A DNA stretch of 64,000 nt, taken from NCBI GenBank assembly GCA_977862235.1, contig OZ374557.1, forward strand, positions 2,914,001 through 2,978,000, read 5' to 3'. Under the pieces are notes generated by a model. It was given only the letters and a program-made list of their open reading frames with translations, made no database searches and was not told the DNA's origin. Position 1 is the first letter of the stretch. Each line of letters begins with the position of its first letter. This DNA comes from Dudresnaya verticillata (taxonomy: Eukaryota). This document shows positions 16,940-55,640 of the stretch, piece after piece. Position numbers and translations under genes: made by a program.

Positions 16940-18075
16940 GCCTGTAAAATTACTTTCTCAGCCATTCCGTTCTCGAAAATGTTTTCAAAGGCTGGGTAGG
17001 ACGTCCCTGAATTTCATTTCACAGCCACGTTTCCCTTGAATATACTTTCACAGTCCATTTTGCCACAAAGACCCATTTCGAAAGTTTGCTAACGATGAAA
17101 CTGCATACTATGCCACCGCTATATGGCCGTGAGCAATGCGAAAGAGAACATCACATTGGCGACATAGGACCCGTAAAAAGCATTTCACAGCCATAACGAC
17201 CGTAATCGATATTTTTACAGATTTTATGACTGTAAAAATTAATCTAGAGACAAACAGTCCGTTAAACGTGTTTTGTATCCATTACTTTCGACGGCTGTAT
17301 ACCTCCTGTCGGTTCTGTACCCCTCGTCATTGGTCGCATGGGTCGCATTTTTCGCATTTCCTCGCTCTTGAAGTTTATTTCACGTACATTTTACCACTAT
17401 ATCGTACTTTGCAGACATTTTGTCTGTGAACTAAGTTTTACAGGCAATAACGACCCAGAAACGCCGTTGGCAGACAATATGTATCAAAAGCATACATTCC
17501 CCAGCAACAGTCATGCAAATAGAGGTTTTACAGGCTCATCCTGGCAAGTCCTGCCAAGACTTCCCAGAGGGTCTTATAAATTCATTTCACAGACACTTAG
17601 GCCTCTTAAATTCATTTCAGAGACACTTTGCCCTGTTAAATGCCTTTCACATACCTTTAGCCTGTGCAATTCATTTCAAAGGCAAGTCTGTCTGTGAAAG
17701 GGGGTTTCCATACATATGATACGGCGTAAATCACATTTATTCACTGCAGATGATAGTTTCATGGTTTTATATCTGATACCACAGAATCAGCCTTTGATCT
17801 ATCTGCAGTTCTCGAAATGTTATTTATGAGGCCTGGAGCCCATGAAACATTGTTTCTAGATATGAGGTACGTAAAATGGATTTTCAAGGTCATCCAGACT
17901 GAGAAATGTGCTGCACATGCCGTGCTGTTCTTTAATTATAATTCAAGGTCCAGATATTTCCCCGCGGAATACATTTCACAGGCAACGGAATGTTGCAAAC
18001 AGATTTCACAGCCACTGTCACCCTAGAAGTATCTTTAACAGCTTCGAATGTCGTAGAAATTGCTTTCACAGCCCT
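16940..18075. repeat. Palindromic ~30-bp-period array 1 (left subterminal)
   Basis: For example 17577-17700: TAAATTCATTTCACAGACACTTAGGCCTCT / TAAATTCATTTCAGAGACACTTTGCCCTGT / TAAATGCCTTTCACATACC... Confidence 0.8.
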
Positions 18076-18236
18076 CGGTTCGTTTATTTCCCGTTTGTAG
18101 CTGTTCGTTGCACAATTACATCTTTCTAGTCTATATTATTCCTATGGAAGACGATGTTGTACTGCACAGTTAGCACATTATGCTAAGAATCTTTAAATTG
18201 GAAGTTAACAGAGGTAGTTTTGTTTAGTAATAGCAA

Positions 18237-20830
18237 CTAGTCTACAATCTTCTTGTCGAATTTGTAGATTGCTTCCTTAGCGTAGCTGCGAAACCTCGAA
18301 ACCATCATCGAAATAAAGTCAAACGTAAACAACCCCTTCTGGTTGAAGCGGTACATCTTCCAGGCCCTCTTTCGTCCCTTCAAGTCTTTATAGTTTGGGT
18401 ACTGCCTTCTTTCTAAGCATACATTACTTATGCGATCCATATATCCTTTCTTCATTCCATTGGCGACATGGGCGAGCGCATAGAATCCGCAAGTAGTGCT
18501 ATCCATCTACAATGGCCCAGTTATTATGGCACCAAGCTCGATGTAAAACTGTCTCAAAGACTTCATAGCCTTGGTAAAGCTGGGAGGGTCGCGCTCTTCC
18601 TTGTCCTTGAACTGTTGGAGACGCGTCCGGTATGCATGCCTCAATAACAACTCCAGAAGCAACATCACCGTATTGAAGACCTCTCCCTGATGTAGCTCGT
18701 CAAGGCTATCAAACATGAAGAGTAAAGGCTGCTTCATTTTGAGCTCATCCGCAAGATTAAACCCTTCTGGAAACGGGTGTTCTTCTAAAAGCTCGTCTAC
18801 TACGAAGCTGAGAACGATGGAAGATTTACACAATGCCACCATCTCGTAGTGCTTTCCAGACTCCCGATAGACAATAACAAATATACATTCCTGAACCATG
18901 AGAAGAGGTATGCTCCCTTTTGTCATGTAGCGGGTTAGACGGAGAGACAATTCCTCTTTCCCTACCCCGGCCTTCAATTCGTCTGAAAACCCCTTGGTAA
19001 GTAAAGTATCTGTGAGGAAACGACGTCGGCTCTTCCTTCATGAAATGGAAAAATCCCACGTACTCTCTCCAAGCATTGGCCTGCTAGATGCAAGGACAAA
19101 TCGTTGCATTTTGCAGTAGGGAAGCTAAAAAAAGGACCAAGTGCTTGCTCTGTTAGCGTTACGGCATCAGCCGTCTTAATACTAACTTCTCCTTCAGGCC
19201 AACCCTGAACTCTATACTTCGTCGTACAGGGGATCTTCGTAGCAACAAGTGATCCTTTTCCCTTCTTCTCGTTGACCAAACGGCTAACCATGACGACTTC
19301 AGCAGACTCAGTTCTTGTACCTGTCTCCAGGGCTACACCTTTACTGCCCTTCTCGTGTTCTCCATCTTCATTCCTCTGTTTCTTCTGCCCTGAGGTCTCA
19401 GGCACATTCTTCGCTTCCATATTCTCCTGGCAAGTATCAGCAACTTTCGGGGCTTTAGTCTTGACCGCATCGGCTTTCTTGCCCACCTTCCCAATACTTA
19501 ACTCATTAGCCTTGTCAGCTTTGTCAGCTTCAGCCTCTTTACTGCCCTTCCCATCCTCCCTGGCGCTGGATTTCATAGCTTCAGACTTTTCAACATCTGT
19601 ACACCCAACTGGACTTTCTCCCTTCTCGGCAACCACGACAGCAAGCTTGCCCGTACTGACATCCTTATTATCACCCCTGACAATATCTAGAGATGAAGAC
19701 TTGTTTGCTCCAAATTTAGTCGAACCCTTGACAGTGCTGATAGCAGTAGACTTAGCCGCTCCTCCCGTCCCTTCATCCTTGCTGGAGTCGACAACGGCAG
19801 ACTTCTCCGCTACTGATTTCTCTGCATTCTTGCCGTAATCGACAGCTGCCTTTATCTTCGATATAGCCTTATTGCTGTCCTTGGGCACATCAATATCAGT
19901 GTTATCATCCGTCCCGTCCACGTTAGGAGCATCAGCTGGTAGCGATGATGGACCGGCAAGGTTCTTAACACCCTTTCCAGCATGCTTGGCACTTCTACTG
20001 GGCACAGTCTTGCCAGCTTTGCCACTGGTCAAGTTAGCTTTGGGTCCCTTCCCGTTGCCTGCCTGAATATTCACTCCCTTTGCTTCTCCCGACTTGCTTT
20101 TAGTCTTTCCAGATGTTTTCTCTGCGTTCTTGGGGACAGGTTTCTTAGCATCCTTGTTTGCAGCCTTCTCCACAGATACCATATCCGTACAAGGAATGTC
20201 TTCTTTGGGTCGACTGGGCTTCTCAGTCTCGATAGAAAGGTGGTCAGATAAATCCAATTCAGCAGTACAGCGTCCTTCCGTCTTCTTCCTCTTCGCCGGT
20301 TTTGTGCTTCTCGGTCTTTTTGATGCCGGCTCTGGCGAAGAAACGCGATGAACAGAATTGTCCGTATTCCGCCTCTTCCTTTCCCCTTTTGTTCGTCTTT
20401 CAACAGTCGGTACGCCTTTCGCTGAAAGTTCTGGAGAATCCTTCATTCCGTTCCTCTGAGACCTGCTCATGATCCCAGGCTCTGATGGCATATCGGGCAT
20501 CACCCTAGTGCCAAGCACGCTCAGAAATGCGTCAGGAACAGGACCCCAGCATGGGGTGTGTGCGGCATACTCCTCGAACGCATCGACAGTTAGAACCTTA
20601 GCACTATTGTCGTATACCCTTGCATGCTGAACAATAAGGTCGCCCAGGCTATCTCCATGCAAAGATCCGCTATAGAAACGCCTGCAGGCCTCTGCCTCCA
20701 TCTCATGGAGTGCTAGACATTTGTTTACTTCTTGCCCATTCTCTTCGCCAATATCAGACCCATCGGCGGAGTTGGGTTCTGAAGCGGCACCGATAGATGA
20801 ATCCTCTCTAGCTTCACTAGAGTCAACCAT
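18237..20830 (-). pseudogene. Ulp1/C48-like protease with long K/A/D/E-rich disordered N-terminus
   Basis: SGKHYEMVALC (His), FMFDSL (Asp), GPL*MDSTTCGFY (Gln position is TAG; Cys); frameshifts near 18975-19070. Confidence 0.75.
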
Positions 20831-21444
20831 ACTTAACCCCTGGCAACCTTGTAGCTGTATATTAACGGCCGTTTATGTGCGCGAGACACACGCATTCAAC
20901 AACAAGAACAACAAGAATTTCCGGGAGTGTTTGGCGCTTGCGCACGCCTCGCACGCCACCGCAAGATAGGGTTTCGAAGAGACACGCAGCAGGGGAAGAT
21001 CGCCCGTGGATCCGTAGTTGCCGCAGACAAAACTACGAAAGATAGAGAGTTAGTTCGAGAGGGAGGGTAAACAACACAATACGAACACACGAGGAAGGAC
21101 TGAGAGTTAGAGTCGACGAAAGCGCAAACGCAAATGAGACCCGAAGAGAATTTTGGAGTCCGTGTGACGTACATGTTCTGGTTTCAGAGTTCCTCCACGC
21201 CAACGCACGGAATCCACAGGTTTTAGGATGCCCCAAGCGGCTGAAGTCCACCGTACAGCCTTGTGGACCTCTTTTTGGATGGAGGAGGAGGGGTGGGAGG
21301 TGGGAGGGGCCCTCACTGCACTGCGCTGGTTGTTCAGGGCGGGCGGAACTGGGCCATGAGCGCGCGTCCGGTAATTGTGAGCAAAAATTCCGAAAATCCC
21401 CGGCTCGGCTGTCGTGGTCGCTCGCTGATTGTAGGGTTTTCTGG

Positions 21445-21725
21445 TTTTCTGAAATTCAGTAAATTACAGGTTTCATTTCAATTCATGTCGATGTAATTGT
21501 AGCCGAGCTCAGGAAAGCAGTGTCTGGCCCCCTGTACACCAGAAGCAATATTGAGGGCGCAATGACATTATAAAATCAACTTCATGGCCTGTACGCCTGT
21601 GAACTATATCTTTTGAGACATAGATGGCATTATGTATACTTTCACAAGCCAAATGGCGGTGAAATGCACTTCCCGTTCCTGGCGTCTGGGAATCAGGTTT
21701 CACAGGCAAGCATAGAGATTTCATG
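21445..21725. repeat. Palindromic array 2
   Basis: CCTGTGAACTATATCTTTTGAG, TATACTTTCACAAG, GGTGAAATGCACTTCCC, CTGGGAATCAGGTTTCACAGG at ~30-bp spacing. Confidence 0.65.
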
Positions 21726-22170: not shown

Positions 22171-23916
22171 CTACCCATAGATCATCTTTTCCTTCCCAGT
22201 CACTCTATCCCAATCTTCAATAGATAAATCCACTGCATCCAGTGCTTCATGACAATGAACGAGCAGCTCCTGGGCTATGGACATTGCCTCCTTTAGAAAG
22301 GAAAGAGTATCGCACAGAGCAATCTTGACATCTCCATACGCCCTAAATCGCTCTTTATCCACCACAATGCGCCCAATCTTGCTAACGGCCCGTTGAGAGA
22401 TGGGAATATCTCTATCATCACATTCTTCTCGCAACGAAGACAACAAATAAGACTGAATACGAGCTCCAATTTCTTCTCTTGAGGCAGAAGGGGACAAACC
22501 AGCTTCCGAAACACCCGCGCCTGAGGTTCGAAGTCTCTCAGCAGACTTCCAAATGTCTCCAAACATAGGTCTACCTCTACGGAAAGGGTTGTTTTCAGCT
22601 TCACTGGGATTCATCTTCTGTGTGGACACAAGGACTCCACTTAAAACTCCAAGAAGACTGAAATCCAAATCCACAGTGTCAAGCTGACATACGTTCTGCA
22701 GACAAGTATCCATTTCGGTAATCGCGGTCCCCAGCGATGAATGCGAACTGTCACGTACCGATTTGAAGGCAAGCTTGCGGTCTCTTTCTGAATCACGTGC
22801 TGTGTACAGGAGGTTGAATAGGCACTTGAATAGGGAAGAAACCATAAGGGCTCGATTCAGCACCGTGTAGTTCTCATCGTCACCAAGGACAATGCTGCGG
22901 TCAGACTCTCTCACAATTAAGGTCGAGTCAATAAACATCCTTTGCCATGAGGCATATACTCTGTGTACTCTGAATAGAAATTGTTGCTGCCCACTTGATG
23001 CTTTCCCAGACTTAACTTCAAGAGCATATGCAATTGCAGTTGAAAGCAGCATCGACGGCGTGAAGCGGCCATATACGGCTCCTGTATCTCGACCATCTCT
23101 TGCGAGTACGTTCCGAAGAAATGATCTAGGAATCTCGTGCAGCTTGTCCAATTTCTCATCCACCCTAAGCACCTTCCCCTTCCTCCCTCCCTTACCACGA
23201 CTTTCGATTTTCTTTTTGTCTTCTGTACCAGCCTCCCATCGTAGAGACAACACAGAGGATAAGTCTTCCGCTGCGGTATTGCACAAGGACGTCTGATTAC
23301 GCCTGTAGATACGCTTCAAGTCTTTGTTAGTACCGCTTTCGGTGTCCACATCTTGCTTCTTCAAAACGTTGGCCACGAATAGGAGAGCCTTTCGACGCGC
23401 TTCATTGTTTCGAAAATGCTTCCTCATAGTTTTCCTTAGCGACGAAGCAATCAGTAACGTATGCAATCGGTCAAGACCGGAGTCAAAGCAGCTATCGCCA
23501 TCAAATTTGCACCAAGAGGCAAATGAAATGTTAATGACCTCGGCGATTCTCCTCTTCAACATTTCTCTTCGTGTTGTGTCTTGGACAAGCTTCTGAATAT
23601 TGAGCTTGCTTTCCTCTCCTGCTGGACGACGCTTGTACGAACCCCTTGTCTTCGCAATAGTCTTTTTTCCCTTGGACGTTCTGGTCGCAGTATCACCAGA
23701 TACACCTGAGTTACCCGTACCTGACCTTCTTGCTTGACACCATATCTCAATACCCCCTTGCAAAACGATGTGGGATTGGAAAGATATACAGGCGTGATTG
23801 CCACCAGCTTGCGCGAGACATACAGTTCCGGGGTTGATTGGCGCTCGCACGCAACGCGCGCTGAGAAGCGCAGGAGAATAAAGGCGCTTCGCTCTCGAAA
23901 GAGTGCAGAACCGCAA
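22171..23916 (-). CDS. Orphan protein (581-aa open frame), basic N-terminal half, predicted helical
   Basis: Long uninterrupted ORF, co-oriented with neighbours and bracketed by arrays; start codon uncertain; no motif recognised. Confidence 0.7.
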   Translation of the reverse strand: MRFCTLSRAKRLYSPALLSARCVRAPINPGTVCLAQAGGNHACISFQSHIVLQGGIEIWCQARRSGTGNSGVSGDTATRTSKGKKTIAKTRGSYKRRPAGEESKLNIQKLVQDTTRREMLKRRIAEVINISFASWCKFDGDSCFDSGLDRLHTLLIASSLRKTMRKHFRNNEARRKALLFVANVLKKQDVDTESGTNKDLKRIYRRNQTSLCNTAAEDLSSVLSLRWEAGTEDKKKIESRGKGGRKGKVLRVDEKLDKLHEIPRSFLRNVLARDGRDTGAVYGRFTPSMLLSTAIAYALEVKSGKASSGQQQFLFRVHRVYASWQRMFIDSTLIVRESDRSIVLGDDENYTVLNRALMVSSLFKCLFNLLYTARDSERDRKLAFKSVRDSSHSSLGTAITEMDTCLQNVCQLDTVDLDFSLLGVLSGVLVSTQKMNPSEAENNPFRRGRPMFGDIWKSAERLRTSGAGVSEAGLSPSASREEIGARIQSYLLSSLREECDDRDIPISQRAVSKIGRIVVDKERFRAYGDVKIALCDTLSFLKEAMSIAQELLVHCHEALDAVDLSIEDWDRVTGKEKMIYG

Positions 23917-24409
23917 GGAGGTTAAACTCAGCGCGTCGTTAGACGCAGGTGCTCACAGGTACGATTGACAGGTAGACACCCGGGCGTGTCGCCCGAAGGA
24001 CACGCTCGAGCGATCGCTCGACAGGTCGCGCTCGTCGTCGCGCGCGCGGAGGTAGATCAAGGAAAACCTTCGCAGATATCACGACGTATCTCTTGATCGA
24101 GCCTGTTCGAATAGGGAGAGCACAGGGAGAGTGCACACCCAAGGGCAGGTGTGGGGGATTGCGGGAAGTTGCCAGAACGCGTGTACTGGACGACCAACCG
24201 CGAAGATTTGAGGCTATTGCGTTTGAGGTGAAATGGCCCAGATGGGTGTGGGCCGGCGTTGATTCCATGGAATGAGTGTACTCAACGGTGGCCATTCAGT
24301 CTGAAACAATCGAAAATCTAGAGTTTGAAAATATTATCATTTTTCTCCGAAGGCATTATATTTTCTAGGATCCATAGCAGTCCATATTTTTCAATCTACT
24401 GAAGTCAAA

Positions 24410-24765
24410 TATCTGTGAAATACATTTCTGGGACTATTAGACTGTTTATTAATTTCTAAGGCCGTTTGGGCTGTGAAAGTTCTTTTACGGGCACAAAAAT
24501 TGGCGGAATCTGATTTTGACGTTCTTTACCTCAGGACCAGAGGTAGTCGTCGTGGAGGTTTCATTGCGCGGGATGGTAATCAATGTTAACAATTGTTAAG
24601 TTAGATTTTCATCAACTGCAAATCACCTGAATGGCGTTTCATAGCCACATGTGCCTGTTAATAGTAGTTAATTGGCACGTACGCCTACTAAAAGCATTCT
24701 ACAGACAAATGAACCTGTGAAACCATTTCTACGAGAAGGTGTGTCTGTGGATTTCTCTTTACAAA
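24410..24765. repeat. Palindromic array 3
   Basis: CTGTGAAATACATTTCTGG, CTGTGAAAGTTCTTTTACGG, CCTGTGAAACCATTTCTACG, CTGTGGATTTCTCTTTACA. Confidence 0.7.
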
Positions 24766-25090: not shown

Positions 25091-28000
25091 TCATGACCCT
25101 TGTCCATTGGACTGATTCTCTTGAGAACGCAAGCTGTATCCGCCGCGGGTTCGCATCGGGCGCTGCATGTCCTCAATATCTTTGCAGTGGCGCACGTCCC
25201 GTCTTCCGCGATCAGGAATAACGAATTCGATGCCAGTCCCATTCCTCTTTTGCAGGCAGGCATCCCAGAACCCATGCAACATGCGACTCTTCCCACAGAG
25301 TGTAGTGGTATCGCCTACCAAAATCAGCAGCTTCTTTGCCCGACTTGTTGCGACGTTGATACGGCGGAAGTCTTTTAGAAACCCGATATTTCTGCCAGAA
25401 TTACTTCTAGTCAAAGATATGATGACGATGCTGCGCTCAAGACCTTGGAGTGCATCAACAGAGTCGATGAGCACATCGAAATCCTTCCTCACCCTCTTGT
25501 CGGAAAGAAAACCGTCGCCATAGTATAGATGATCCCTGATATTCTGAACTTGTGAGCGATACGGTGCGGTGACAATGATCTCGCTGCACAGCTCCTCATA
25601 ATCTGGCCCACCAGAATCCCTAGAACTAGACATGATGTTCTTCAATCTCCATAGAACCCGATTAATTTGCCTGACCTCGAAGCTATTCGTGAACTTACCA
25701 CCTCCAGCAGACAACTCGAATCGGTCCAAACTCTTGGAGGTATCCATGAACGTGAATGGAGCAAAGCCATAGCGACCAGAATTGTAGGAACATTCGTACC
25801 GGTCAACCGAAGACGGGTGAAGAATGAGGTCACCATAAACCATTCGGCTTTGGATTCTGGCAATCGCAGGATGTGTACGGTATTGCCGACAAAGTCATGC
25901 TACCGGACAACGATAACGGTCTACCATGCGCTCAAATAGGGACCTAATTTGCATCTTGTAAGGCATACTGTAGTTGAAATGCCTCATCCTTGCAAGGAAG
26001 GACCCAACAGCAAACTGCGACAGCAGCACAGGGGGTAACTGCTTGTGGTATCCGCATATGACGACATGCAAGCGACCCGTCCCCTTCTTAGTGGTCTTGG
26101 CGGCAGCAGCGATAGGGATGAGACACTCCACTTCTGTTGAATTTGCACCCTCATCCACAATAACGACATCAAGGGGTACCTTCAACTCCTGCAGGACAGC
26201 ACTCGCTGCAGTTGAAAGCGTTGACAAGAACACGATGCATTCGCGTGCCATCGCCTTTCTGGCCTTGGTAGACGCGAAGTTACTTGGCTCGAAATGCTCC
26301 GATCCCTCCTTCTCCTTGTCGAAGATCTCTCTATCGAATACCAATGCCTTCTCGTTCAGAGAAATGTCCAGCAAATCCTCGAACTTGTAGCGCTGACGAC
26401 CAACCCTGACTACATCGGGTATAACCTTTCTACCCTTGCCATCCACGAATCCCATCTTGAGCTTGCGAGAGACGTTATCTACAGCTTGGTTGGAACTGTA
26501 GCACGCCAAAATACGCACCCCTTGGGGGTTATTACTGCAACGCGTCCGACCATCTTCCTTCTTCAGACGGTTGCGCTCTACAGCACCTTCACACAGATGG
26601 CCTGCAGTAGAATGATGCAGTAAGGAAGCCACGAGAGTTGAAATAGTAGTCGTCTTTCCCGTTCCAGGAGGACCAACGATCTCGCAGAAGGATGAGGATC
26701 CCCTCCCCATATCCCCCATTTCGCACAGAACCATGCTCACAGCATTCTTCTGAGAAGGGTTACACTCCGCCTCCCCCAAGCCATCCAAAAACGCCCGGCA
26801 GCCACTGTCGACACCAGTACTCAGCTCCTGGTCAAGAACACTCGAGCGGAGCGCTGGACGCCGAGCAGAAGAGCCAGTTCCAGGCTTGGATCCAGGGCCT
26901 TGCGGTAGATTATCGCCGAAGAGATACTCTAGAAGTCTCTGCGGGGCCCTGCAGATGTTGTGGGTAGCTCTGAACATGCGGTAGAATGCGACGAAGGACT
27001 CCAACGGTTCGAAGAAAATCGTATCGCCCACATCCGGACGCCCCCTATCCAGTTGACGTCGGTTTCCACACATACGCCCATTGACAGTCTCGATTCGCTT
27101 CTCTACCCCCATGTCGTCCACGCTCTCACTGTCATACGAGAGACTGCGGCACAGGAATAGCACCAACGGAGAGTTTGGCCTTCGGCATTCACCTTAGCAG
27201 TGTTTCTTATAAACCCTATGCACAGAGTCATGCCAGCCACATCGTCAACTAGCTTCTTGTTCAGGTCGAGATTCTGGCTTGTACACTTGAAGTTGTAGAG
27301 TAGACTTGACGGCTGTGCCTTGTTGATACGAAACTTAAACATTGTGGCTTCCTTCTCCACCAGGGTAGACGTGAACTTCTCTTGCGACCATTTCCCTTCG
27401 AGAGTATCTCGAATCAATCGACATTTGTTATCGAGAGCGTGGCGGATGAGGAAGTTTAGCTCGAGGTACAGGAACACCTTCAAATGATCACTGTACGAAG
27501 AGATATCTTTTGCTTAAGACGCCTCAGGAAGCATGAAATGCTTGTTGACCGAAAGGAAGTGCTCAAGCCAGTAGTCGTCGTCAAGAGTTACACTCCAAAT
27601 CTTCCTGTTAGATGCTGTGGCCGATCTAGGGTCAATAACCGGGAAGGTAATGGCGGCGTGCACAATTTACAAGTCAACATGAAGCTTCCTGTCTTCTAAC
27701 TTGTTCTTCATCCGTTCCACCTTCAACGTTTCGAGTTCCTCACTCGTACGCTTTCTGGTCTCAGCAATTAGACCACAATTGCTGCCTTCATCTTCCTTTT
27801 GCTCGTCCTGATCGGCTTCGTCTCCTTGTTCACCTTCAGCACCTTCCAAAACCATGTCCTCGTTGTCGGACTCCGGCACTTCAACATCGAAACCCTGATG
27901 ACCAACTTCGTAGCCTAGTACTCCGTTGCGCATCTCCTGGAGATTTCCGCAGAACTCTTCCTGGATAGAAGCCGGATTACGCTTGAAGCGGGTGTGCCTT

Positions 28001-28908: not shown

Positions 28909-29499
28909 TAACCACTGAGCACGGAAGAGAGTAGTGCGTCAATGAGTGGGCGGTAAGCCTCTGCTGTTGTGAACAAAGCGAGGCCCCGGCCACGCGCGGG
29001 CTCGGCTCGGCCAAAGCAAGCCTCACCTTTCGCTGGGTGCTTGCCAACACGGCCGGCACCCCGGTGCTCGCAGAAGCAGGAAGTTTTGACAAAAGGTAGG
29101 TGTGGGAGTGTGGGTCGGAGGGAGTGTGGATGTGAGTGCAGGATACCACTGGTCGCGCGCACACAGGGAATAAGAGTACAGGTTAGTAGTTCTTGGATGT
29201 TCAGCTGGACCGGGTCAGGCGATGTTGTTCCACAGTTCGCGCGCGGGCGACAGCCGTCGGCGTAACTATTGCGCCCACGACGAACATGGCCGCCGGTACG
29301 CCCTGAGCCGACGAACCGCCCGCGGGTGCACCCGCCAAAATAGTGGGGCGGCAGGGGCGCATTAGATCCGCATGCCAACTGGAGTTGATCCTGGTGGAGT
29401 TAGGGCTTTTGATTCACGTGCACGGGTGCGGTTACAAATCGTGGTGGATCAAAAACCTAAAAGGATTTTTGAAGTAAAACCAAAATAGAATGAATCAAA

Positions 29500-31079: not shown

Positions 31080-34000
31080 ATGTCCTGTACCGATTCGTCT
31101 AGTCCGTATCGTGACTATGTGCGCTCGTTTGGTGCAGAGTATGATTCCGATGAAGATAGTGGATCTCACGTTCTCAGTAGTGACCGCGGCGCCTCTACCC
31201 TTCCATACAGCAGTGTGAAGTGGTCTAGGGGGCTTCTACTAGTACATCATTACTTCAAGGCCCTGTGGATGCGAGCACCCTAACAGGAGCCCCTGGGAGA
31301 GACAGGTCTGAATGTCTGGGCATTGTCTCAAATTGTGGATTTAGTGAGGAGGAGGTGAGGGAGGTATTGAAGGATTTTGCAGAAGAAGCACATGGGGGTA
31401 CGGCGTTACCTGACCCTATCGGTACGACGACGGATATGTATGAGAGGTATCTTTCAGACCCGAGGGGAAGCATGCCGTACCACGACTTGCCTCTACGGCC
31501 TGACCTGGGTCTTGTTAGGCCGCGGTATCAAAATCGGGCAGGGAGTGGTCATTCGCTAGGAAGACGTGCTAGGAGACAGGTTGATTTCATTAGAATGGCG
31601 TACGCCTTGCAAAGCAAAGCCTTGCTTTGCCGCTTCATTGCAACAATTCCTAGCAACGGACAGGAAGGTGTTGCAAATCAATTGCTGCAGTACCTTGAAG
31701 TTACTGCAAGGACTGGCTCAACTGGACAAAGTTCCAATTCGAGGACAATTAGCTCTGCAGAGTTGGGGGGTCGACTTGCCGCTCTCCTTGAAAGCCATTC
31801 TAGACGAAAAGAGAGGAACAATGGTTTGGAGCTACTTTTCGGTCCAGTTATTGGTATACGCGCACGGTTCTCTACATCAACAAAAACTATTCCCTCAGGC
31901 GGTCAGGGAGTTGCATCCAAGTCTAGAGAACGCCACACGTGTTGTACATGGATAGACAAGGCGGGGTCAATTCGCTGTACTTGCATTGGGTATACCGATT
32001 ATCGTGTTAGAACGAATCTGGATGCATTCAAAGATCCGTGCTGTCATCATGCTGGAGTATTTACATCTCTACTGGACGAGATATCAACCTGTTTGTCAGG
32101 CTATCTACCTACCACACGAACGGAATGCGCACTGGCGTTAATTGAAATGTGCAAAAGTAAGTTTAGCGATGTGGAATGTGCTCTATTCATGGTCGACCTT
32201 CCTCATCTGTGGAACCACCATGGAACAGCGATATCTGTAATTGCTAGGGCGGATCCACTCTCTCCAGATGAGCTTCTATACATTCCGATAAGGCGTACGA
32301 TGCGGAATGGGGAGCACAGGATATGCGCCTTCTGCGATTTGTCAAAGACGACTAGTTGTGAGCACGTCACTTTATTCCATTCACTAGATACTCATGGAGG
32401 GCCGGTGAACGGTACTGAAGGGTCTGGACCACAGCAGCGTCCGAGAACTATGCAACACGGCCCGGACTGGAATCCCATGCTCGACCTACAATCAGTATCC
32501 TATTTCCCACTTCCAATTGTCAACTGCACACGGAGCATTCGAGTTGACCGGGAAGTATTGCAGCTATCGCAGAAGTGTGCCGCATTTCTCGTCAAGGCTC
32601 CAAAGATATGTATGGTATGCAACAGTCTACATTCCGAAAGCAGTAGGAAACTTCAGGAGGGTATTCTCTTATTCTCGGCTGGATCTTGCCGAATGCATAT
32701 AGAGATATTCCAGTGCAGCAGCCTGTCTTGCAATGCGAAGATTCATTCTGAAGGGCGGGACCATGGTATATTACTCCTGATGCTATCTTCTGCAGCTACA
32801 CATGTGGTACTCCGAGACATATTGACAGGTGTGTCTTTGACGAATGGAACTGTTAGCGGGCGCATACAGCAGTTCCACTCCACAATGCTCTCTAACATAA
32901 GTGCAGATTTAATCCCAGGGATTTGGTTGCAGCGCGACTCTACGTTGACACCAGAGCAGCAGTTCCAGAAACAAGTTGACAGGAATGTCCGAGACGGACT
33001 TTTCGATTTAGAAGGATATGATGCCCCCGCATCCCAATCGATTCAGGATGCACATGATGATTCATCGCATCCCCCCGGGGCAGGAGCGCAGCATGCACCA
33101 CCTCCTGTTAGAAATGTCTGGTCCGAAAGGAGTCCGAGAACGACGTCTGATGACGCGGGATTGTTGGAAAGCCAGCATGGGTGGCGTTCTGCAAGGTTGA
33201 TTCAGAAACCGTGTGTGGTTATGTGTGCAAGTTAATGGTTGTTGCCCCACCGCGAAGTTTATTTCAGTGCAACACATGCGAGGCGACTGGACGGATGCAT
33301 GCAATTTGCGCGGATGGCATATGGAGTGGGTATCAGAAAAGGTTGCGAAGGAAGTTTACAAACGTGTCCCAACCTTGCGAGGCGCTACACGTGTCTAGGG
33401 CAGTCTCCCGGAATGCTACGAGAAAGCGTCCGCTTCCCGGACTGCTTCGCCGGGAACGGACCGCGCTCCTACTGATCTCTGCTATAGAGGGCTCCTCAAT
33501 TACCATTACTGGCCAAACGGTTTCGGCATGTGCTTCAGTAGTTCGTCTCATCAACCCCTCTGTTCTTCCAACCAGCTACTTCCAGGAGTCCATATGTGGT
33601 AGAAACGGTGGTGACTGTAGCGATGACATAGGCGAATGCGTACTGAAGAGGATTCGGGAGCTCACAACTTTCATTTTTACTGAGGAGGTGTTGCTTCTAC
33701 GTCTGTGTAGGGCGCTTCTGAAGTACCTTGTGAAGGTATGTCAGCGCAACAACAGGAATGCGCTGACAGCTGCGCATGAAGGAGTTAAGGAAACTGTCAC
33801 GGCATATACTTCAAGGGATAGCGTTGCTAGTATAGCTGATACTCAAGGTTTGCCGTGGAACAGTAGCTTCACATCAGATCGAGACGAGGAAGAAGAAGTC
33901 CTAAGGGACTGCCGACATGACTTGTTCATACTTTTTAAGGCATTAGTGCAGGCCCCATGTACTCAGCTTGTGACAAAGAAGTAGCTTCAAAGTCTATCTA

Positions 34001-35058
34001 CTGTAGCTAACGCTTGCATGGCAGGAATTGAAGGAGTTAAAGAACAACTGAAGGAGACAACTGTTCCGATTGCACAGAGGAGTCAGACCGAAAACTATAA
34101 TGTGCTAAGGTTTCTACGGATACTGCGCGGAGGACTCTCCGCGACGTTGTACTTCGAAAACGTGTGCAAAGTTCTGCTGCAACATATAGGGAAATCGCTT
34201 CATGATGTGGCGAGACGGGGGAGGGACTTTTATGAATTCTATGTTACATTGCCACCGGGAGTCTGCAAAGCTTCCAGTTTCGCAAAAGACTGGAGAAGTG
34301 CTGAATTTGAATTACTGCGAGCCAAGTACTTGGGAATTAACCTTGCCAATAGGCTTGAAGCGAATATTGACAATCAGTACGCATCTGCTTGTAGAACAGG
34401 AGTTTTCTTCCCCGCCCACCCACAAGTGCGTCCGATGCCGTTTAATGACGAGTTAAAGGGTATATCTCAGGACGATTTCTTCGGTGTCTGCTCCAAGCGT
34501 TACTTGCAGAAGAATAAGAGTTACACTCCAGGCGCGTTGACATTCTGCTGCTCTTGTTCATCTCCTATTATCATGGGGTTCAAGGTGCTGGAGAAGAATG
34601 AAGGGCCGAGGTCTGTACTGGATGCCATCGTGTCGCGGTTTCCCCGTCTACCTCGGCATATTATCTACGACTTTGCCTGCGGACTGTACAACAGCGCAGC
34701 GCATACTCTTTGGTGGGCCATTGAGGACACAACGATAACTTCTGATTCCCTTCATGCTCTAAATCACAATTGCTCGCCGAGTTACGTCCCTACCTCGCAC
34801 GATAACCTCAACATGTCCAACACGGTCGCCCATGAACAGAGGAATCGCGCAATTTCGGAAATCGAGAAGAGTCTCCGCTACTGTTCCCAGGAGTTCTATA
34901 TAGCTCTACTGGCATATTAAGTCTGTATTCTAAACTTGAAGGCCAAAGCGAAATCATCGCCAATGTACAACAGCAGGCCAATGGATGTTTCTGAAGCAGA
35001 TCTTCACTGGACGTACTTCAGTTGCCTCGAACTGACATGTCCGTGTTGTTCAGAGTAG
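31080..35058 (+). pseudogene. KDZ (Kyakuja-Dileera-Zisupton / HMGXB3-like) transposase with N-terminal SWIM/CxC-like Cys-His clusters
   Basis: CTC...CCHH, CAFC...CEHV, CMVC...CSSLSC; AICADG; CSKRY...TPGALTFCCSC; EGPRSV; IIYDFACGL; DSLHALNHNC; NTVAHEQRN. Frameshifts near 31270 and 33200, stops at 33982 and 34918. Confidence 0.88.
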
Positions 35059-35139
35059 TTTTCTGTAGGAGCGTGCGTGCAGGACCACTAAACCCGTTTT
35101 GTAAGCTTCATGATTGCATAGTAGAATGTCCTAACTAAT

Positions 35140-35360
35140 TGTCTGTGAACTTATCTTCGCAGGGCGTTTTGGATCAGAAAACTACTTCGGCTACTCCGGG
35201 CCTCAGAATTTCATTTCGGAGCCCTTAGTGACCAAAAGACTATTCCAAAGACCAGTAGCTTCAGGAAAGAGTATTTTCGGACTTCGTGGTTCCGAAAACA
35301 ATATGTTCAGATTTATTGCTCCAGAAACGAATGCTATCAGACCTATTGCTTCACAAATGT
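35140..35360. repeat. Palindromic array 5
   Basis: CTGTGAACTTATCTTCGCAGG, CTCAGAATTTCATTTCGGAG and weaker units at ~30-bp spacing. Confidence 0.6.
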
Positions 35361-36505
35361 TATGAAACAGAACCGTATGGTTCAGTAATAAGTAGTTATC
35401 TCTGTCAGTTGAGGGCAAAGAGTAAATAGTCACTATGTGCACATAGTGGCATGCTACAGCTCTACACGCCAAATCCAGCTGGATTGAGCAGTCACTAGTG
35501 CACTACAGTCAAGACTGGTCCAAAATTCTAATGGAGGATGTATCGCGCCTTGCGGCACACGCGCGCTTTTCGACTAGTACCGTATTCTGTAATGTATACT
35601 CTTCACCTCCCCTACGCAACGTTTCTGCCATTTTGTGCTTCTAGCTAAAAAGTTAACTGCGAATCACACGGAAATGAAATTGCCATCGCAGGCATACCCG
35701 GGCATTCCACAGGGCCCAGCGGGGCCCCGCGGAGGGCCTCTCGAAGGGCTTTTCGTCACTGAAGGAATGGTTTTGGTATTGCGTAAAGCTGTGCTTGGGA
35801 AACAACGTTGCCAGCGCTGCTTGGATGAGAACTCTCCTCATTTTTGCACTTGGTACAGGAAATCATTTTCTGGGCTTGCTGCATGCAGCCGTGCCCATTT
35901 TCATGCTTCGAAAATTTTGCAAAAAAATCTAACTTTTAAACACGGTTCAGTTCCGCAAATCAAGGGGCACGGGGCTGCATTGCTACATCTCGATTGCGGG
36001 CGTCAGAGAAGACGTCTGGAAAACGTGCAGGTTCATGATCCTATGCCCCCGGCGTTGCAACCAGTCCTCATCCCCACCCTCGCAGCAGTCATCTGCCTTG
36101 TTGCCATACGGTGATCGCCGTCTTCAAGACTTGTTGTTGAACGGCCTAGGCTACTGATGCTCCAGACGTCTGCGCGCAGGAATTTCATATGCGCAACGTC
36201 CCGATACTGCTAATCTAGAGGTATCTGCAGACTTATTTCGGCTTCCATGCTACAGATTGGGTCAACCAGAACAAGATTGCGCTACTGTTCTTGCATCTAT
36301 TTATCTCACGCGTGAGATATTGCTGTCCACACTGCCTGCTCCCCGCATTTCGCTTTTTGTGCTGTGCTGCTATAGCTAACATTCCTGTTTTGTCTGCGTC
36401 TCTTGCGCGCTGCAGCGGCAAACAACCCGGAAATTCTTACCTTTCTTTCACGCGAAGTTCGGCTGCGCAGCGGTTACGAAGGACTTTACGTAAGACCGCC
36501 CGGAT

Positions 36506-38805
36506 ATGCGTGTACTGGAAATCTTATTGCCGTGTCTACGGCGGATGTGTGGAAATGATTGCAGCGACGGTGTTCCTGCTAGTTTATCGCCAGTTGTTTC
36601 CACATTAACAACTATAATTGAGTGCGCAAGATGGGTGGAAGATGTCAGTAAGAGCAAGGCAGGAATCGGTAAATTGAAGGTTCTCGTGTGCGTGAAAGAA
36701 TATAGTCCGACTGATGGCGGAGAGTTCGAGACGGGACGTAGACCGAATGCAGCATTAGGGAAGATCTTTCGCATCTGGGGAGCACCTGGTACTGCTGCTC
36801 CCTACGTGCAGGCACCTGCACGTGTGCCTGGCACAAGTCGTGAGGAGGGGGCGACTAGGCATGGAGAGCGTAACGAAACACGGCCCACCGAGGGTGAACG
36901 GAGCCAACCAGGAAGACCGCGACTACCGATGGGGAACTCCCGCCTTGACAGTCATGGAGATGGACCGCCAGGCCTACAGTGACGAGATGTGGGCAATGCA
37001 AAGTCGAAAAGCACACCTCGGCATCCCACGAAACGCTCAAGGCAAGAAAGGTCCAGAACGACTGTGAATGACGGAAGTACTTCGAACTCGTGTGTAACGA
37101 CAGGCCATCGAGAGCCTTCGCCTTCTTCAGCTTCGATTGGAAACGGTCTTGAGAAGAATACGTCGGTAAACGATCGTTTCGATCCGCCGGCGGAAAAGGA
37201 GGCCTCTCACCAATCTGGGTTTGATGTGGAGGTTCCGATAGAAGTTTCTGCCCAGTGTACGTCTCTGCTACTGGATGGTGGAGGTCACATCACACACCCG
37301 ATTCGGACCAAGTACTATAGCTACAAGGACCTGCATGTGAATGAGTTGGTTTGGGCTGTGCAAAAGTTACGGGACATAGAAGTGAGGCACGTAGCGCAGA
37401 ACGCTACGGGGACTGTTTTAGGCGATACGATTGCTGCGCCAGATCAAATCAATACGGTTGGCGAGCTTGTTTACAACTCTCTAATCCGGAGAACGTTCGT
37501 GGGAAAGTAGTTAGAGTTAGAACGGTTTCTTTCGCACCTTGGATTGGAAGTGACGGGGAGATACAAGACTATGAGCAACTTGAAACCCTCTACGTGAAGA
37601 TGGATATCAAGAAGCCGGACAGGAATACGAAAACCCAGAATTTTGCTGCCCTTTGCACGAATCTGATGACGACTGGAATGGAGGGAAGTGCTGGCAAGGC
37701 GTTACTTGAGAAAGCAAAGCAAGGGATTGTCTTCCAGAAGTCGTGCAGGGTTTGGAGGATTTACACGAAGCGGGCAAGGGTAAAGCACAAGGGTACTCCG
37801 AAGGAGTCAGAGAGAAGGAATAGTGATACTAATGATACTAATCGGAGGGTAAGAAAGAAGGCGACCCGCGGGGAGACGAGCATCAATGACATGCAGTGCG
37901 TATGTGGAGGTCCCGAGAGGTGCGCGTTCGACCAACGCCCGGCATGCTCATTCATTTCGAAGGTGGATGGCAGGGACATCGAGGTTGGTAAAGGATCGGT
38001 CCACCCAGAAATTCGATTCTTCAAGGGAGGGAACGTCGCGGAAGGCGACATTGCTACTCGGTTCGCAAGTGTATCGCAGGTGGCAACGGATGCGGCTCCT
38101 GACTCCCTGCACGACTGTGAATCTGAGGTTGTTTTATGGAAGAAAGATGCTATCAAAAGGGTCTTAGTTAAAGGTCCATACGCATACACAGAAGAATCTG
38201 GTACGACTGGACGTTTTGTAGGCACAGCCATTATGGTGGATGATAGACCTTGGGAGGAACCTGATGTTGAAAGTTTTGCGCTCGGAAGGAAGAAAAGAAG
38301 ATCCAGCGCTGCCCGGAAATCTCAGATGAATATTGCAAGGGCAGTAACTCTGTGTGATTTCCGAATGAATCCAGAAACGCCTGGAGGTGCCACTTTTCAC
38401 TACCCGTACTCGGATTGGTATGAGCTTCCTTCCTGCCAGCATTTACTTGGCCATCACTTTTTGCAGAAGATTGTTCCTACGAAGCTTGAGGATCTTTCAG
38501 CTCCAACAGTTGTTCAGTTCCTTTGGGACGCTGGACAGATCTCAGACGATGAAGACCCGTGCTCACAGGTGACAGAAGGTCAACTACTATACTGGCTGTG
38601 CTATTTCCGGAAACAAGGCCGTGAAAAATACTTGGTGCACAGACGTTTACGAACACGAAAGCGAATATGCAGGCATTCATGCGCGTGGACTTACTTCCAC
38701 AGCTGCAGTGTCTGTGAAATTGTGTTCGAGGTCACGATGGCTGTGAAACTGTTACTCATAGACTTGGTAACCCAGAACCGTATTTCCCAGACCTGTTTCC
38801 TGTGA
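36506..38805 (+). pseudogene. Orphan gene (~700 codons), one in-frame TGA (36980) and a frameshift near 37505
   Basis: ORFs 36506-36982 and 36989-37510 are in frame; 37351-38805 continues in another frame; 3' end runs into array 6, so the true stop is uncertain. Confidence 0.6.
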
Positions 38806-38865
38806 ATTCATATTTCACAGGCGTCACGATCGTGGAAATTTGTTTCGGGGACAGGCTATTTCGGA
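38685..38865. repeat. Palindromic array 6
   Basis: CTGTGAAATTGTGTTCGAG, CTGTGAAACTGTTACTCATAG, CCTGTGAATTCATATTTCACAGG (38799-38821). Confidence 0.8.
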
Positions 38866-39900
38866 AGGCGGCAAGTAAACTCGAGAAATGATGGGCTATT
38901 CCGGACCATATCGAAACCGAGGTTTCGTACACGCAATTCTTGGTTACGGTAGGATACGTGAGCAACAAAAACGCGGATGTGCTGCAGGAGTAATCGTATC
39001 CGGATATATAGTTCTATCAACAAGTCTGTCGGCTCTTCTCCCCTACGCTGGAAAACACACGCATTTTACACACGTACGTATCCTATGATGTCGGCAGACA
39101 TACCATGGCAGTACACTATCTGGTTTGGTGCGCCACACCTTCTTGTGTGCGTAAAGGGTGGGGAAAATCATGACTTGGCTTACATACTGTGGGACACACA
39201 CTCTTTGCGATATTTTGCGATATGCGGAATTCAGCGAGGGGTTTGCGATGAAAGAAGTTTGTAAGGTACGAGGAATGCGTTTACTTCACGCTAGCGCTCG
39301 ATTTGAGACATTACTTTAACAGCTTTTTTGCGTCTGCGCGCGCAGCGGCGGCAAACACTCCTTGAATAATTGTGGACTCTTGTGGGCTACTACTGTACCA
39401 CTACAGAATTTGAGACGCTCCTTGCCTGAGCAAAGGGCCTCTTACGATTGAAGCGGCCGATGCTGGCGGGAAATATTTGTGAACTTGGAGCTTCACACAC
39501 AGCTGCAAATGTCTACCGGGCGGTTTAAATTGGTGGGGAATTGGTTGATACCAAGAATTGGTTGATACCAAGCTGGGCGGCAGCTCCAACATAGCTGCCG
39601 CCTAGCTTACAACAGATTTGACATCACATCTGTTGTGCCGTCACATGTCATCCCCGAGCAGCTCAGATTAGAGGCACCCATCGGTTCTGAAGATGCTGAT
39701 ATTTTCAATTGAAAATTGGCACCATTTTGCGCCGTGCTTCCCGCGGGAACGAGCTTCTCCAAGACGGCCTGAACTACCCGGAGCCCGTCTCCCGGACTGT
39801 ATGTACCTTGGACCCCTGCTTAAGCTTGAGCCCAGTCTAGTCTATCTAGAAAAGGTGGCAACAGCAGCTGGGACCAATCCTCTTCTAATACTTCAGTATC

Positions 39901-41594
39901 ATGGAGGTTTATCCGGTCAGCGCGACAGGACTTGATCGCTCGCAGACCAATGCTATCAAGGCCTTTCAGAAGGGAAAGAGTGTGGCTATTCTAGGCGGGG
40001 CGGGGTCTGGAAAGACCCATGTTTTGAAAGAAATTGTGAGACGCGCACGGTCTAGTTCCAGTGGTCACAAGCAAGTTGCGGTTTGTGCACTGAGCAATAA
40101 TGCTGCGTCCAATCTCAATGGATGTACGATGCACTCCCTGTTTTCCGGTCATTGTTCATGGGAATGGTCAAAGAGACATCTTTGGGAGAAGGTATCCGGA
40201 AATGAACGACTATGCGGTATTTTGAGGGCGATCAAGTGCTTAATCATTGATGAAATTTCTCTCATCAAAAGGAACGAAATTGAAGCAATCGAATATGTCC
40301 TGCGTCGACTTACGTCGCGGGAGGAGGACGCCGCATTGCCTATGGGTGGAAGACAGCTAATAACCGCTGGTGATCCCTTTCAGCTGGAACCTCTGGTGTT
40401 GAGGACACAAAGTGTTACTTTGAAACTTTCTTCCAATCTCGAGTTTGGTTTCTACTATTCACAGGATATGGAAATGGAGCTGTTGTTTTGCTAGACCATA
40501 ACTATCGTCAGAGGGAGGACAGTGTATTCTACTCTATGCTACAGAGATTTCGGTACGGCTCGCCCCGGGACTCTGAAATTGTTGAGCTAAATACAACAAG
40601 CGCGCAATCACGCAATGCTCCGCCCAGCGGTTCCACGCGTCTATGCCTGAAGAAGGTAGAGGTTACCGGTGTCAATGGAAGAGAGATGGAGAAACTAGAA
40701 GGCCATGATTTTGTTTGCGTTGGTGCGGACACATACGGCAGGCAACCATCAGACTCAGTGGCGAAGCGTTTGGAAGAAGTTGCCTCAGTAAGGTTGGTAA
40801 TAAGGAAGAACTGTTTAGTCGTGCTGACTCGAAAATATGGGGACTTCAACCCAGGATCTCGATTTATGGTCACGGATGTCGTCACCATGGCGGCGAGCTC
40901 GCCTATATACGGACGTGACAGTAGAAGACAGTTCGATGCGAAGCATGTATCCGTCACTTTAGCGCCGCTCTCTAACTCGTCCTCGCAAACGTCGACGCTA
41001 TCGCGTCTGCCGGGTGCACGGACTATCTGCGTGCGACCGATGAGCTTCACGGTGCACAACTACGATACTAGCGTTGCTGGAACTAGGGTACAGCTTCCCA
41101 TTCTTGTCGCGTATGCGATGAAAATCCATCGCAGTCAAAGAATGAGTCTCGAAAGCGTAGCGGTTGACTTTTCTGGAATGGGAGCATGGAGGCCGAATGG
41201 GATGGTGTATGTCGCACTCTCAAGATGCATTAGGAAGGATGCTTTGTGGATAAGGGGGCTGTCAGGAGACCATGTGAGAATAATTGAAAGAGCTAAGGTG
41301 GCCATGTCGGGCATAATTTGCTTTGCGAGGAGCTATCCGCAACGATTTATTGGGGAGAAAGCGTTGAAGCAGTACATGACGGATATTAGTAAGTGCAATG
41401 TACGATCGAGTCGACTTGGAGGACAAACTGCGACAAGTGAGGAAGACGAGAAGGATGAAATAGACCAAGCAGTATGTCCAGAAGGTGTGAAGAGAAAAAG
41501 ACCAGACACTGGAAACCATATCTCGAGAAAGGAGGACATGAACCCTAATGTCATGAGATCCTCGAAGCGACGTCATCCACAGCAACTGCGCTAG
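39901..41594 (+). pseudogene. PIF1-family DNA helicase, one frameshift near 40395
   Basis: GGAGSGKT, IIDEIS, GDPFQLEP, (shifted frame) FFQSRVW...LDHNYRQRED, RVQLPILVAYAMKIHRSQ, GMVYVALSR. Confidence 0.92.
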
Positions 41595-41744
41595 ATAAGT
41601 TGTAGAACTGATAAGATAGCTACAGAGTAATGGTAGAATCGATAAACGAAACAGACGTACGCTTAAGCAGAATGTCTTAAGAAATACAACATCATGAGGG
41701 TATATTTTGAGATCTCCAGTCCGGTGATGAATGTTGGTTCCGAG

Positions 41745-42305
41745 TCTGGGAAATATAATTCACTGACAAAGATGTCTGTGTAATGCACTTTCCAGATGTG
41801 AAACCTGTGAAATAAATTTCACAGGCATTTTTATTTGTGAAATAAAGTTTTGAGACAATCTGATCGTAGGAATGTATTTCACAGACTTTCGTAGCTTGAA
41901 ACATTGTTTCACAAGCAGGGGGGCTGTGAATCTCGTCTCAGAGGCTCACGAATAGTTAAATAGTACTGAAGATACGTATGGAAGTAAAACAGAAACGAAT
42001 GAAATGTAGTACAGACACACGCCCAGAAATTAACATTGTTCTAATCCGATAATCGAGGAATACCAGAAAAGGGACTTAAGAATTGTACTCGCGTTTCACG
42101 ACAAAGTCGGAAACATGGTTCAGAAGGTTTACTTAGGCAGCGCTGACATACTGCAGTGTAGTGTAATATATGTAGTACATGTAGATATGTAGATATGTAG
42201 AGAAAAATAAATGTTGAGAACATACAGCGCAAAATGTAATTTTCAGTACCAAATGGCTCAAAAGTGCAATTCACAGACACTGCTGCTCCAGAAATTCACT
42301 TCTAG
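41745..42305. repeat. Palindromic array 7 (right subterminal)
   Basis: Perfect-arm CCTGTGAAATAAATTTCACAGG at 41804-41825 flanked by ~30-bp-spaced degenerate units; more units at 42225-42305. Confidence 0.85.
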
Positions 42306-42493
42306 AATCGCTGTTTGGGACTCGCATAGGCCGCCGAAACAAAACGGCCGGACATCGGGCCATGAAAAAAATATTTCTAGGCCGCCGAAACAAAAGGGCT
42401 GGGCACCAGCGGGGGAACGGAATGTTTCGGTCCATGAAAAAATATATTTCTAGGCCGCCGAAACATTACGGCTTGCAAATTGTTTCGTCCCCT
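42292..42493 (-). repeat. Right terminus of the giant element (3 x GGCCGCCGAAAC + TIR)
   Basis: TAGGCCGCCGAAAC repeated three times, ending TGTTTCGTCCCCT. Confidence 0.8.
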
Positions 42494-42533
42494 GCGTTCA
42501 ATTAGCCGTAATTAAGTACGCATATGTGGCAAC

Positions 42534-42750
42534 AGGGGACGAAACATTTACAAGCCGTAAGGTTTCGGCGGCCTAGAAATCTATTTTTTTCATGGGCCGA
42601 AACATTCCGTTCCCCCGCTGGTGCCCAGCCCTTTTGTTTCGGCGGCCTATGCTAGTCCCAAACAGCGATTCTAGAAGTGAATTTCGGAGGGGATGTGACC
42701 TGCTAATGAAATTCTGCGCAATCTTAGGTCTGTGAAATTCATATTACAGC
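42534..42750 (+). mobile_element. Second, inverted copy of the right terminus (truncated sister element)
   Basis: AGGGGACGAAACA... is a near-exact reverse complement of 42292-42493 lacking one ~41-bp unit, followed by CTGTGAAATTCATATTACAG. Confidence 0.75.
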
Positions 42751-45841: not shown

Positions 45842-45855
45842 ACGGCGTTCAAGAT

Positions 45856-48002: not shown

Positions 48003-48028
48003 GGGCGTCCCCGTCTCCTCAATGCGAC

Positions 48029-55636: not shown

Positions 55637-55640
55637 TCTC

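Follow-up and report, generated by a model that had tools for sequence, protein, structure and literature searches.

How transposons of 20–30 kb with several genes escape silencing outside the flowering plants is an open question, and it is touched by a locus of Dudresnaya verticillata. The window analysed here, a stretch of 64,000 nucleotides (contig OZ374557.1, positions 2,914,001 to 2,978,000; assembly GCA_977862235.1), contains a decayed copy of a giant KDZ/Zisupton-like DNA transposon of 25.9 kb (16622–42493, in window positions). Its six genes form two divergent blocks, with g1, g2 and g3 on the minus strand and g5 (the transposase), g6 and g7 on the plus strand. A preliminary description of the window had reported palindrome arrays with a period of about 30 bp in each gap between these genes. 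What could such arrays do for the element? We found that degenerate dyads with the half-site GCCTGTGAAAT are present in all seven non-coding blocks of this one element and are confined to them.

Distribution of the dyad arrays

The consensus of the preliminary description was scored at no more than 4 mismatches of 18, with 60 dinucleotide shuffles as null. This fixed consensus detected 23 sites in 16901–42800 (shuffle mean 0.32, maximum 2), divided among the seven non-coding blocks as 10, 1, 2, 3, 1, 1 and 5, and none in the six gene blocks. It had no site in 38,100 bp of flank either, which bears out both the presence of arrays in each intergenic gap and their claimed absence elsewhere in the window. 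The two units singled out as the best ones indeed matched with no mismatch (41805–41824) and with one (38800–38820). Because the consensus had been derived from these very sites, we used for cross-validation a profile trained on the first array, A1, alone (17 units), and scored phased chains with it. The best chains in A2 to A7 reached 37.7, 42.8, 50.3, 30.9, 63.0 and 88.5, and a chain of 18.5 was present behind an inverted sibling end, as compared with shuffle maxima of 7.6–12.0, at most 7.4 in the genes, and maxima of 8.7 and 12.1 in the two flanks. When viral contigs were scanned for two adjacent half-sites, 30 stretches were recovered, none of which had more than one strong unit.

A1 (16942–18071), the longest array, is left subterminal, 3' of g1, and comprises several phased runs. 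A2 (21567–21705; shuffle maximum 7.6) lies between the 3' end of g2 and the promoter side of g1, and A3 (24413–24764; second chain of 24.1) between the 3' end of g3 and the promoter side of g2. A4 (29538–29887) is located between the divergent promoter regions of g3 and g5, and consists of a single unit at 29538 and a run at 29778–29887. A5 (35143–35279) starts 85 bp past the transposase stop, A6 (38683–38850) has six units in phase, and A7 (41746–42306; second chain of 16.1), which includes the perfect unit, is right subterminal, 3' of g7. The arrays are thus located as first described, but the scored units of A2 start, and those of A5 end, within the wider limits that had been given. The intergenic placement of A6 needs a correction, as this array runs into an open frame and covers its last ~40 codons; the homology of this frame ends at 38541. 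Units had also been reported after a duplicated end. They are present, but this end is the inverted end of a sibling copy, 40 bp away from the right terminus of the element and identical to it at 149 of 154 aligned bases.

Anatomy and phasing of the units

Among the 34 distances between neighbouring units that are below 70 bp, 30 equal one or two periods (null mean 3.1, maximum 10, in 5000 random placements), with a best period of 30.0. The mean step is 29.68 ± 0.44 bp (n = 33). This corresponds to 2.8 turns at 10.5 bp per turn, and the suggested spacing of roughly three helical turns has to be abandoned. The period of about 30 bp itself was recovered in the autocorrelation, with motif-free identity peaking at lags 29–30 (0.315 and 0.357, chance 0.258). 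We also looked for a 10-bp periodicity and saw no peak (identity 0.268 at lag 10, same chance level), so that a nucleosome-bending signal is unsupported.

Conservation is mirror-symmetric in 56 phased units, which were picked with a profile derived from the very same sites, and most information resides in the inner AA/TT pair and the outer C/G. The unit had been described as a palindrome followed by a variable linker of about 9 bp. Of 33 linkers, 32 do measure 9 or 10 bp, but the dyad, 20–24 bp long, reaches into them, with C at +2 in 79% and G at −2 in 62% of the 56 units. Arm identity is 63.0% for adjacent units, 58.4% for units of one array and 58.6% for units of different arrays, whereas the corresponding values for linker positions +3 to +7 are 32.1%, 28.6% and 27.3% (chance 26%); among the units of this copy, the arms are therefore better conserved than the linker cores. 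Since arm identity is the same within and between arrays and linkers are near chance, the arrays converge on a single consensus without local homogenisation.

The two arms of a unit complement each other no better than randomly re-paired arms (0.589 versus 0.585, p = 0.40). Only 6 of the 56 units fold into hairpins at −3 kcal/mol or better (median −0.9 kcal/mol), and Rfam returned 0 matches. These results rule out attC-like hairpin cassettes and structured RNA repeats. Arms without co-variation and the small number of stable folds fit instead recognition of the duplex. Each half-site appears to be held independently to one consensus, as would be expected if a protein with two-fold symmetry read the duplex, and this reader probably binds cooperatively.

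Age of the arrays and probable selection

Over 5507 codons, the genes of the copy contain nine stops, a count that includes the natural end of g5. Assuming equal rates, these stops correspond to a divergence of about 1.2–1.3% from an intact copy. The units differ by about 40% in their arms. As the copy has decayed by about 1% and the sibling end differs at 5 of 154 positions, the divergence of the units predates the death of the copy. The arrays must have diverged in a living family, yet they kept dyad and step in seven places, and this is our main reason for invoking selection, which probably maintained arms and spacing while the linkers drifted. The argument on age and selection is drawn from one copy.

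Function of the arrays

In our preferred reading, for which we regard the chances as about even, the arrays are predicted to be double-stranded sites at which an accessory protein encoded by the element binds as a dimer. This protein would bind the phased palindromes cooperatively and coat the non-coding DNA, which would keep the promoters open, and the genes transcribable, despite host silencing. The target of such an activity is more likely to be chromatin (histone marks, SUMO, R-loops) than 5-methylcytosine (5mC). A histone- or SUMO-level target is favoured because CpG is not depleted and because H3K27me3 silences transposable elements in C. merolae, as cited in a study of the red alga Bostrychia (10.1101/2025.02.11.637652).

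Which protein could be the binder? We compared the element with 62 related transposase loci, which are fragments of 1.5–20.6 kb, mostly GC-rich, with transposases 33–61% identical. None of the 62 has phased units of the window motif, and none has homologs of g1, g2 or g3. A g6 homolog occurs clearly in one locus (L047, E 1.8e-11) and weakly in another (L001, E 5.6e-4). In ten gaps of the three closest loci no 29–30-bp period was seen with a motif-free test, which also missed the short window arrays A2 (z = 2.1) and A4 (z = 1.2). A de novo dyad search in the gaps, compared with 6 shuffles, scored 6.27 in L001 (shuffles up to 5.88) and 5.94 in L047 (up to 5.33), with no phased sites; there may be faint dyads in the gaps of these two loci. 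Since g6 occurs in two loci in which no phased units were seen, and g2 in none, the binder may be an accessory protein other than g6. We tentatively regard g2 as the leading candidate, and the identity of the accessory protein is weakly indicated.

g2 (22171–23952, minus strand) is an intact orphan open reading frame (ORF) of 593 codons. Its product is basic (pI 9.5 over the 535 residues analysed), and carries conserved motifs (Y-x-RR-x-GESKL and RKAL-x-F), with conserved basic motifs lying in its N-terminal half. A word-index search yielded no homolog, and two distant relatives (E 1.6e-18 and 2.8e-7) surfaced only with a full HMMER scan of 1.84 billion representatives. We found no match to g2 in Pfam, PHROG, PDB or Atlas, and no relative among viral contigs. 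The structure model from the single sequence (predicted local distance difference test, pLDDT, 36.7) is unusable.

Several points weigh against this reading. Neither a DNA-binding fold nor a ParB-like domain or a chromatin enzyme could be recognised in g1, g2 or g6, and the sites are known from the sequence of one copy. The CpG ratio is not depleted in the element (0.92), nor in the neighbouring Gypsy element (1.0) and Mutator-like element (MULE; 1.0). A demethylating role of the VANC type, VANC being the anti-silencing protein named in the preliminary description, is therefore not indicated. The two largest arrays lie close to the ends, where transposase sites are often found, and the binder could be a host protein. 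Moreover, the absence of arrays in the relatives is weak evidence, because these are GC-rich fragments of 33–61% identity and the test missed A2 and A4.

A bolder version of the preferred reading, which we consider quite unlikely, would place the element in a red-algal lineage of helicase-carrying giant KDZ transposons, in which an undescribed dimeric protein of the g2 family polymerises on 30-bp-phased palindromes. The element would then form a chromatin domain of its own, and might even be maintained as a free episomal form, by analogy with EBNA1 on the Family of Repeats (FR) of Epstein–Barr virus (EBV).

The alternative that survives best, although we hold it to be unlikely, is that the arrays are sites of the transposase itself, which would use them for end synapsis and to compact a transpososome of 26 kb, or to activate the genes of the element. 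The largest arrays, A1 and A7, come within 320 and 190 bp of the ends, units also occur at the sibling end, and transposases can be sequence-specific activators (10.64898/2026.08.24.746577). However, five arrays are internal, the ends possess their own terminal inverted repeat (TIR) and TAGGCCGCCGAA motifs, and relatives with this transposase have no phased units in their gene gaps. For the last two reasons an accessory protein is the likelier binder, and transpososome assembly, one of the functions proposed at first, becomes the weaker option.

It is distinctly unlikely that the arrays are gene boundaries (terminators, pause sites or insulators), at which an element or host factor, together with the Sen1-like helicase, would block read-through between packed genes. 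Arrays follow the stops of g1, g2, g3, g5 and g7 at a distance of 85–466 bp, one lies at the end of g6, and g3 is closest to Sen1 in PDB. Nevertheless, A4 sits between divergent 5' ends where no transcript terminates, and the units show symmetry but no hairpin folding.

We consider it improbable that an old minisatellite with a 30-bp unit, spread through the element by slippage and gene conversion, left the arrays behind as neutral relics. Slippage did build the arrays, since similarity is slightly higher for neighbouring units (0.63 in arms, 0.32 in linkers) than for distant ones (0.586 and 0.273), and the units are highly degenerate. Yet under neutrality arms would have decayed as much as linkers and the spacing would have drifted, whereas linker length is nearly invariant, linker cores are close to random, and conservation is position-specific and mirror-symmetric. 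Values of z up to 4.1 came from a test for block duplication between arrays, but unit phase was not preserved in its null and the result was not used.

More improbable still would be maintenance or replication sites of an extrachromosomal stage, similar to the EBV FR or to parS or iterons, with Pif1 and the superfamily 1B (SF1B) helicase serving replication. The FR consists of 30-bp repeats, each with a central palindrome to which EBNA1 binds (PMC3218044), and Pif1 adjoins the transposase in 29–31 of the 62 related loci. On the other hand, Pfam and PHROG scans detected no polymerase, primase, Rep or capsid gene in the element, the arrays are dispersed and do not form one origin, and we found no sequence relationship to EBNA1 or ParB. 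Finally, independent insertions of miniature inverted-repeat transposable elements are hardly credible, as nothing beyond the palindromic look recommends them, the arrays share no flanks (top score 23, null maximum mean 22.8), and none of the seven is flanked by a direct repeat above chance.

Termini and genes of the element

The ends of the element were deduced from the terminal inverted motif AGGGGACGAAACA, which is exact at 16622 (plus strand), at 42481–42493 (minus strand) and at 42534 (plus strand), and recurs with G in first place at 43329. Inward of each of these ends lie TTCGGCGGCCTA-type motifs. The left terminus (16622–16760, plus strand) combines the 13-bp TIR motif with a TTCGGCGGCCT-type subterminal motif, and the right terminus (42327–42493, minus strand) has three subterminal TAGGCCGCCGAA motifs in addition to the TIR motif. 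An exact 13-bp inverted motif at both 16622 and 42493, together with a common subterminal motif, gives the element TIRs like those of KDZ transposons. We found no flanking direct repeat of 4–12 bp at end offsets from −4 to +4 that could represent a target-site duplication (TSD), in a single copy whose ends may be rearranged. The pairing of the two ends as one insertion is for this reason only inferred. The inverted end of the sibling copy (42534–42749, plus strand) has its own array units at 42669–42749, one of them at 42730. A further TIR-like end at 43329–43443 (GGGGGACGAAACA, with TTCGTCGGCCTA inward) has a possible opposite end 115 bp off, and shows neither a dyad array nor a TSD.

g5 (31081–35058, plus strand; two stops, one frame change) encodes a Cys-rich KDZ/Zisupton-like DDE transposase, with catalytic residues D(ADG) at 33313, D(YDFAC) at 34669 and E(HEQ) near 34834. 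Its 11 homologs, of 701–1291 aa, share the motifs D..G, YDF.C, D..H...H..C and NTVAHEQ.N. YDF.C is present in all 12 aligned transposases, and D..H...H..C and NT/SVAHEQ.N in 11 of them, one being truncated; the first catalytic D is present in the window frame and its pattern matched in 10 of the 11 homologs. The set D..G, YD..C, D..H...H and N..EQ.N is one that we take to be of KDZ/Zisupton type, and it is by these transposase motifs that the element is KDZ/Zisupton-like. Pfam KDZ had no match in the window or in 10 homologs, and the KDZ-associated CxC4 matched one of the 10 with E 0.0013, below the curated cut-off. The structure model of g5 has a pLDDT of 51 overall and below 50 over most of the catalytic part, and a fold search matched only residues 1–95, to generic helical bundles. 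Among the homologs, only the Pyropia yezoensis proteins in the P0011 cluster carry an organism name, which suggests a red-seaweed host.

Two other genes encode helicases. g3 (25091–28938, minus strand; four stops, one frame change) is a Sen1/Upf1-type SF1B helicase with a long N-terminus (AAA_11 and AAA_12, E 4e-36 to 5e-36), and its best PDB match is yeast Sen1 (E 1.4e-35). Three 48-bp coding repeats are located in its N-terminal part, at 28460–28607. g7 (39889–41594, plus strand) encodes a Pif1 helicase of about 560 codons with one frame change (PIF1, E 3.5e-20). A Helitron was ruled out, as the 40 ORFs scanned for an HUH Rep gave no Helitron Rep match and Pif1 stands as a separate gene.

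g1 (18297–20872, minus strand; one stop, one frame change) has a low-complexity N-terminus rich in Lys, Ala and Ser. Its C-terminal domain shows, by eye only, the motif order of Ulp1 (H..D..x..C), a SUMO protease typical of Zisupton elements; BLASTP and a profile of three sequences did not confirm this identity, and the Pfam scan gave a weak NACHT match (E 0.003). g6 (36494–38802, plus strand) is a conserved but broken orphan of about 750 aa with an uncertain 3' end, for which we obtained no family match in Pfam or PHROG, nothing from a word-index search with g6c, and no usable Atlas match. Searches in Pfam, PHROG and PDB returned no methylase, SET, ParB or 2OG-oxygenase domain for the element. 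A bacterial promoter scan was near chance and is irrelevant to this eukaryote.

Related transposase loci

Two of the 62 related loci encode Ulp1: L001 (Pfam C48, E 5e-13) and L035, by homology. Breakpoint comparison among the related loci did not define their ends. In L001 a 475-aa ORF (7467–8891, minus strand) lies between the transposase and Ulp1 genes. It resembles a 2OG oxygenase or JmjC protein by eye, has no Pfam match, and could be related to PAG3, an accessory protein of Plavaka elements discussed below. In L035, non-coding DNA beyond the Ulp1 gene and far from the transposase (6440–6640 and 8520–9200) is occupied by a degenerate dyad repeat of another kind, whose step is about 72 bp; it may reflect motif turnover or belong to another element. 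A conserved large ORF downstream of Pif1, with internal GC-rich repeats and no Pfam or PHROG match, was seen in L009 (13900–16644, minus strand) and in 17 other loci, all GC-rich.

Neighbourhood of the element

The window contains several other elements. A separate MULE of ~9.3 kb (3058–12326) has long TIRs, MULE (6559–8853) and SWIM domains and a weak Ulp1 match, and its second gene, on the opposite strand, includes 18/36-bp repeats coding for Gly, Asn, Arg and Tyr (9521–10230). A C2H2 zinc-finger ORF, probably a host gene, is found about 1 kb left of the giant element (14772–15578). On the other side, a Gypsy element of the chromovirus type (45065–55940) has 300-bp long terminal repeats (LTRs) that are 98% identical, encodes reverse transcriptase, RNase H, integrase and a chromodomain, and has ~3 kb of additional sequence separating pol from the 3' LTR. 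It is followed by a foldback element of ~1.65 kb (56454–58106) with several nested inverted arms that are 79–88% complementary.

Comparison with known systems

The closest published precedent, by analogy, is provided by the Plavaka elements of red algae. These giant EnSpm elements of Bostrychia and other species are 17–19 kb long and carry accessory genes, with tandem arrays of inverted repeats beside the gene for the ParB-like PAG3; self-binding by the accessory protein is proposed only (10.1101/2025.02.11.637652). The element described here is likewise a giant algal DNA transposon with accessory genes and tandem inverted-repeat arrays. In contrast to Plavaka, however, its transposase is KDZ-like, without a Plavaka or EnSpm match in Pfam, its arrays are in every gap and at both ends and not beside one gene, and its cargo comprises Pif1, a Sen1-like helicase and orphans, with ParB, methylase, SET and 2OG-oxygenase genes undetected. 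This comparison is drawn from the published description of Plavaka. PAG2 (N6-MTase and SET) and PAG3 (ParB-like and 2OG oxygenase) are also reported on Zisupton elements in Bangiophyceae, and PAG3 escaped InterPro in the source paper (10.1101/2025.02.11.637652). As PAG3 itself was missed in this way, g2 or g6 may be homologous to PAG1 or PAG3.

The VANDAL elements of Arabidopsis were the model of the preliminary description. VANC binds non-coding tandem motifs, as established by chromatin immunoprecipitation and electrophoretic mobility shift assays; these motifs are 8–9 bp long (YAGTATTAY, AGTTGTCC) and are not dyads, and VANC acts on DNA methylation (PMC5735166). Both systems share a short motif repeated in tandem in the intergenic and terminal non-coding DNA of a multi-gene transposon. 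Unlike VANDAL, the Dudresnaya element has a 20–24-bp dyad at a fixed step of 29.7 bp and a KDZ-like transposase, and it has neither a VANC match nor CpG depletion. Kinship to Mutator elements is not supported, as no MULE match was found in the element itself, its transposase is KDZ/Zisupton-like, and the MULE at 6559–8853 belongs to the separate element.

Among giant KDZ and Zisupton elements of algae and fungi, KDZ elements of up to 30.3 kb have been listed in a study of Ectocarpus, which extends the self-binding proposal to other algal giants (PMC12477816), and a Zisupton of 31.7 kb was excised in Chlamydomonas (PMC9977147). The Dudresnaya element resembles these giants in its size class (up to 30–32 kb), its accessory genes, its TIRs and a transposase of about 1200–1300 aa. 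It departs from them, as far as the published accounts go, in having no TET/JBP gene and neither the 8-bp TSD of Zisupton and Dileera nor the 7-bp TSD of Kyakuja (PMC12730594) at the window copy. The FR of EBV oriP, which is bound by EBNA1, is needed for episome maintenance and promoter enhancement (PMC3218044). It has in common with our arrays a 30-bp unit with a central palindrome and a protein of the element as binder, established there and predicted here. It differs in being one block of near-identical units on a viral episome, so that the likeness is one of analogy, with no homology found.

In the literature covered, which did not extend to subscription papers, Repbase reports or the Plavaka supplements, we came across no account of a KDZ element with phased dyads in all of its gaps, nor of a KDZ lineage linked to Pif1, and our analysis records such a lineage as well. 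The idea of self-binding is itself precedented: in Arabidopsis it is established for VANDAL and Spm, and for the algal giants it is so far a proposal. What is new here is the KDZ host, the strict phasing, the presence of arrays in every gap, and their occurrence with no detectable ParB gene. The Dudresnaya element thereby offers a sharply defined cis signal, together with a shortlist of three orphan proteins, in a lineage without a 5mC footprint.

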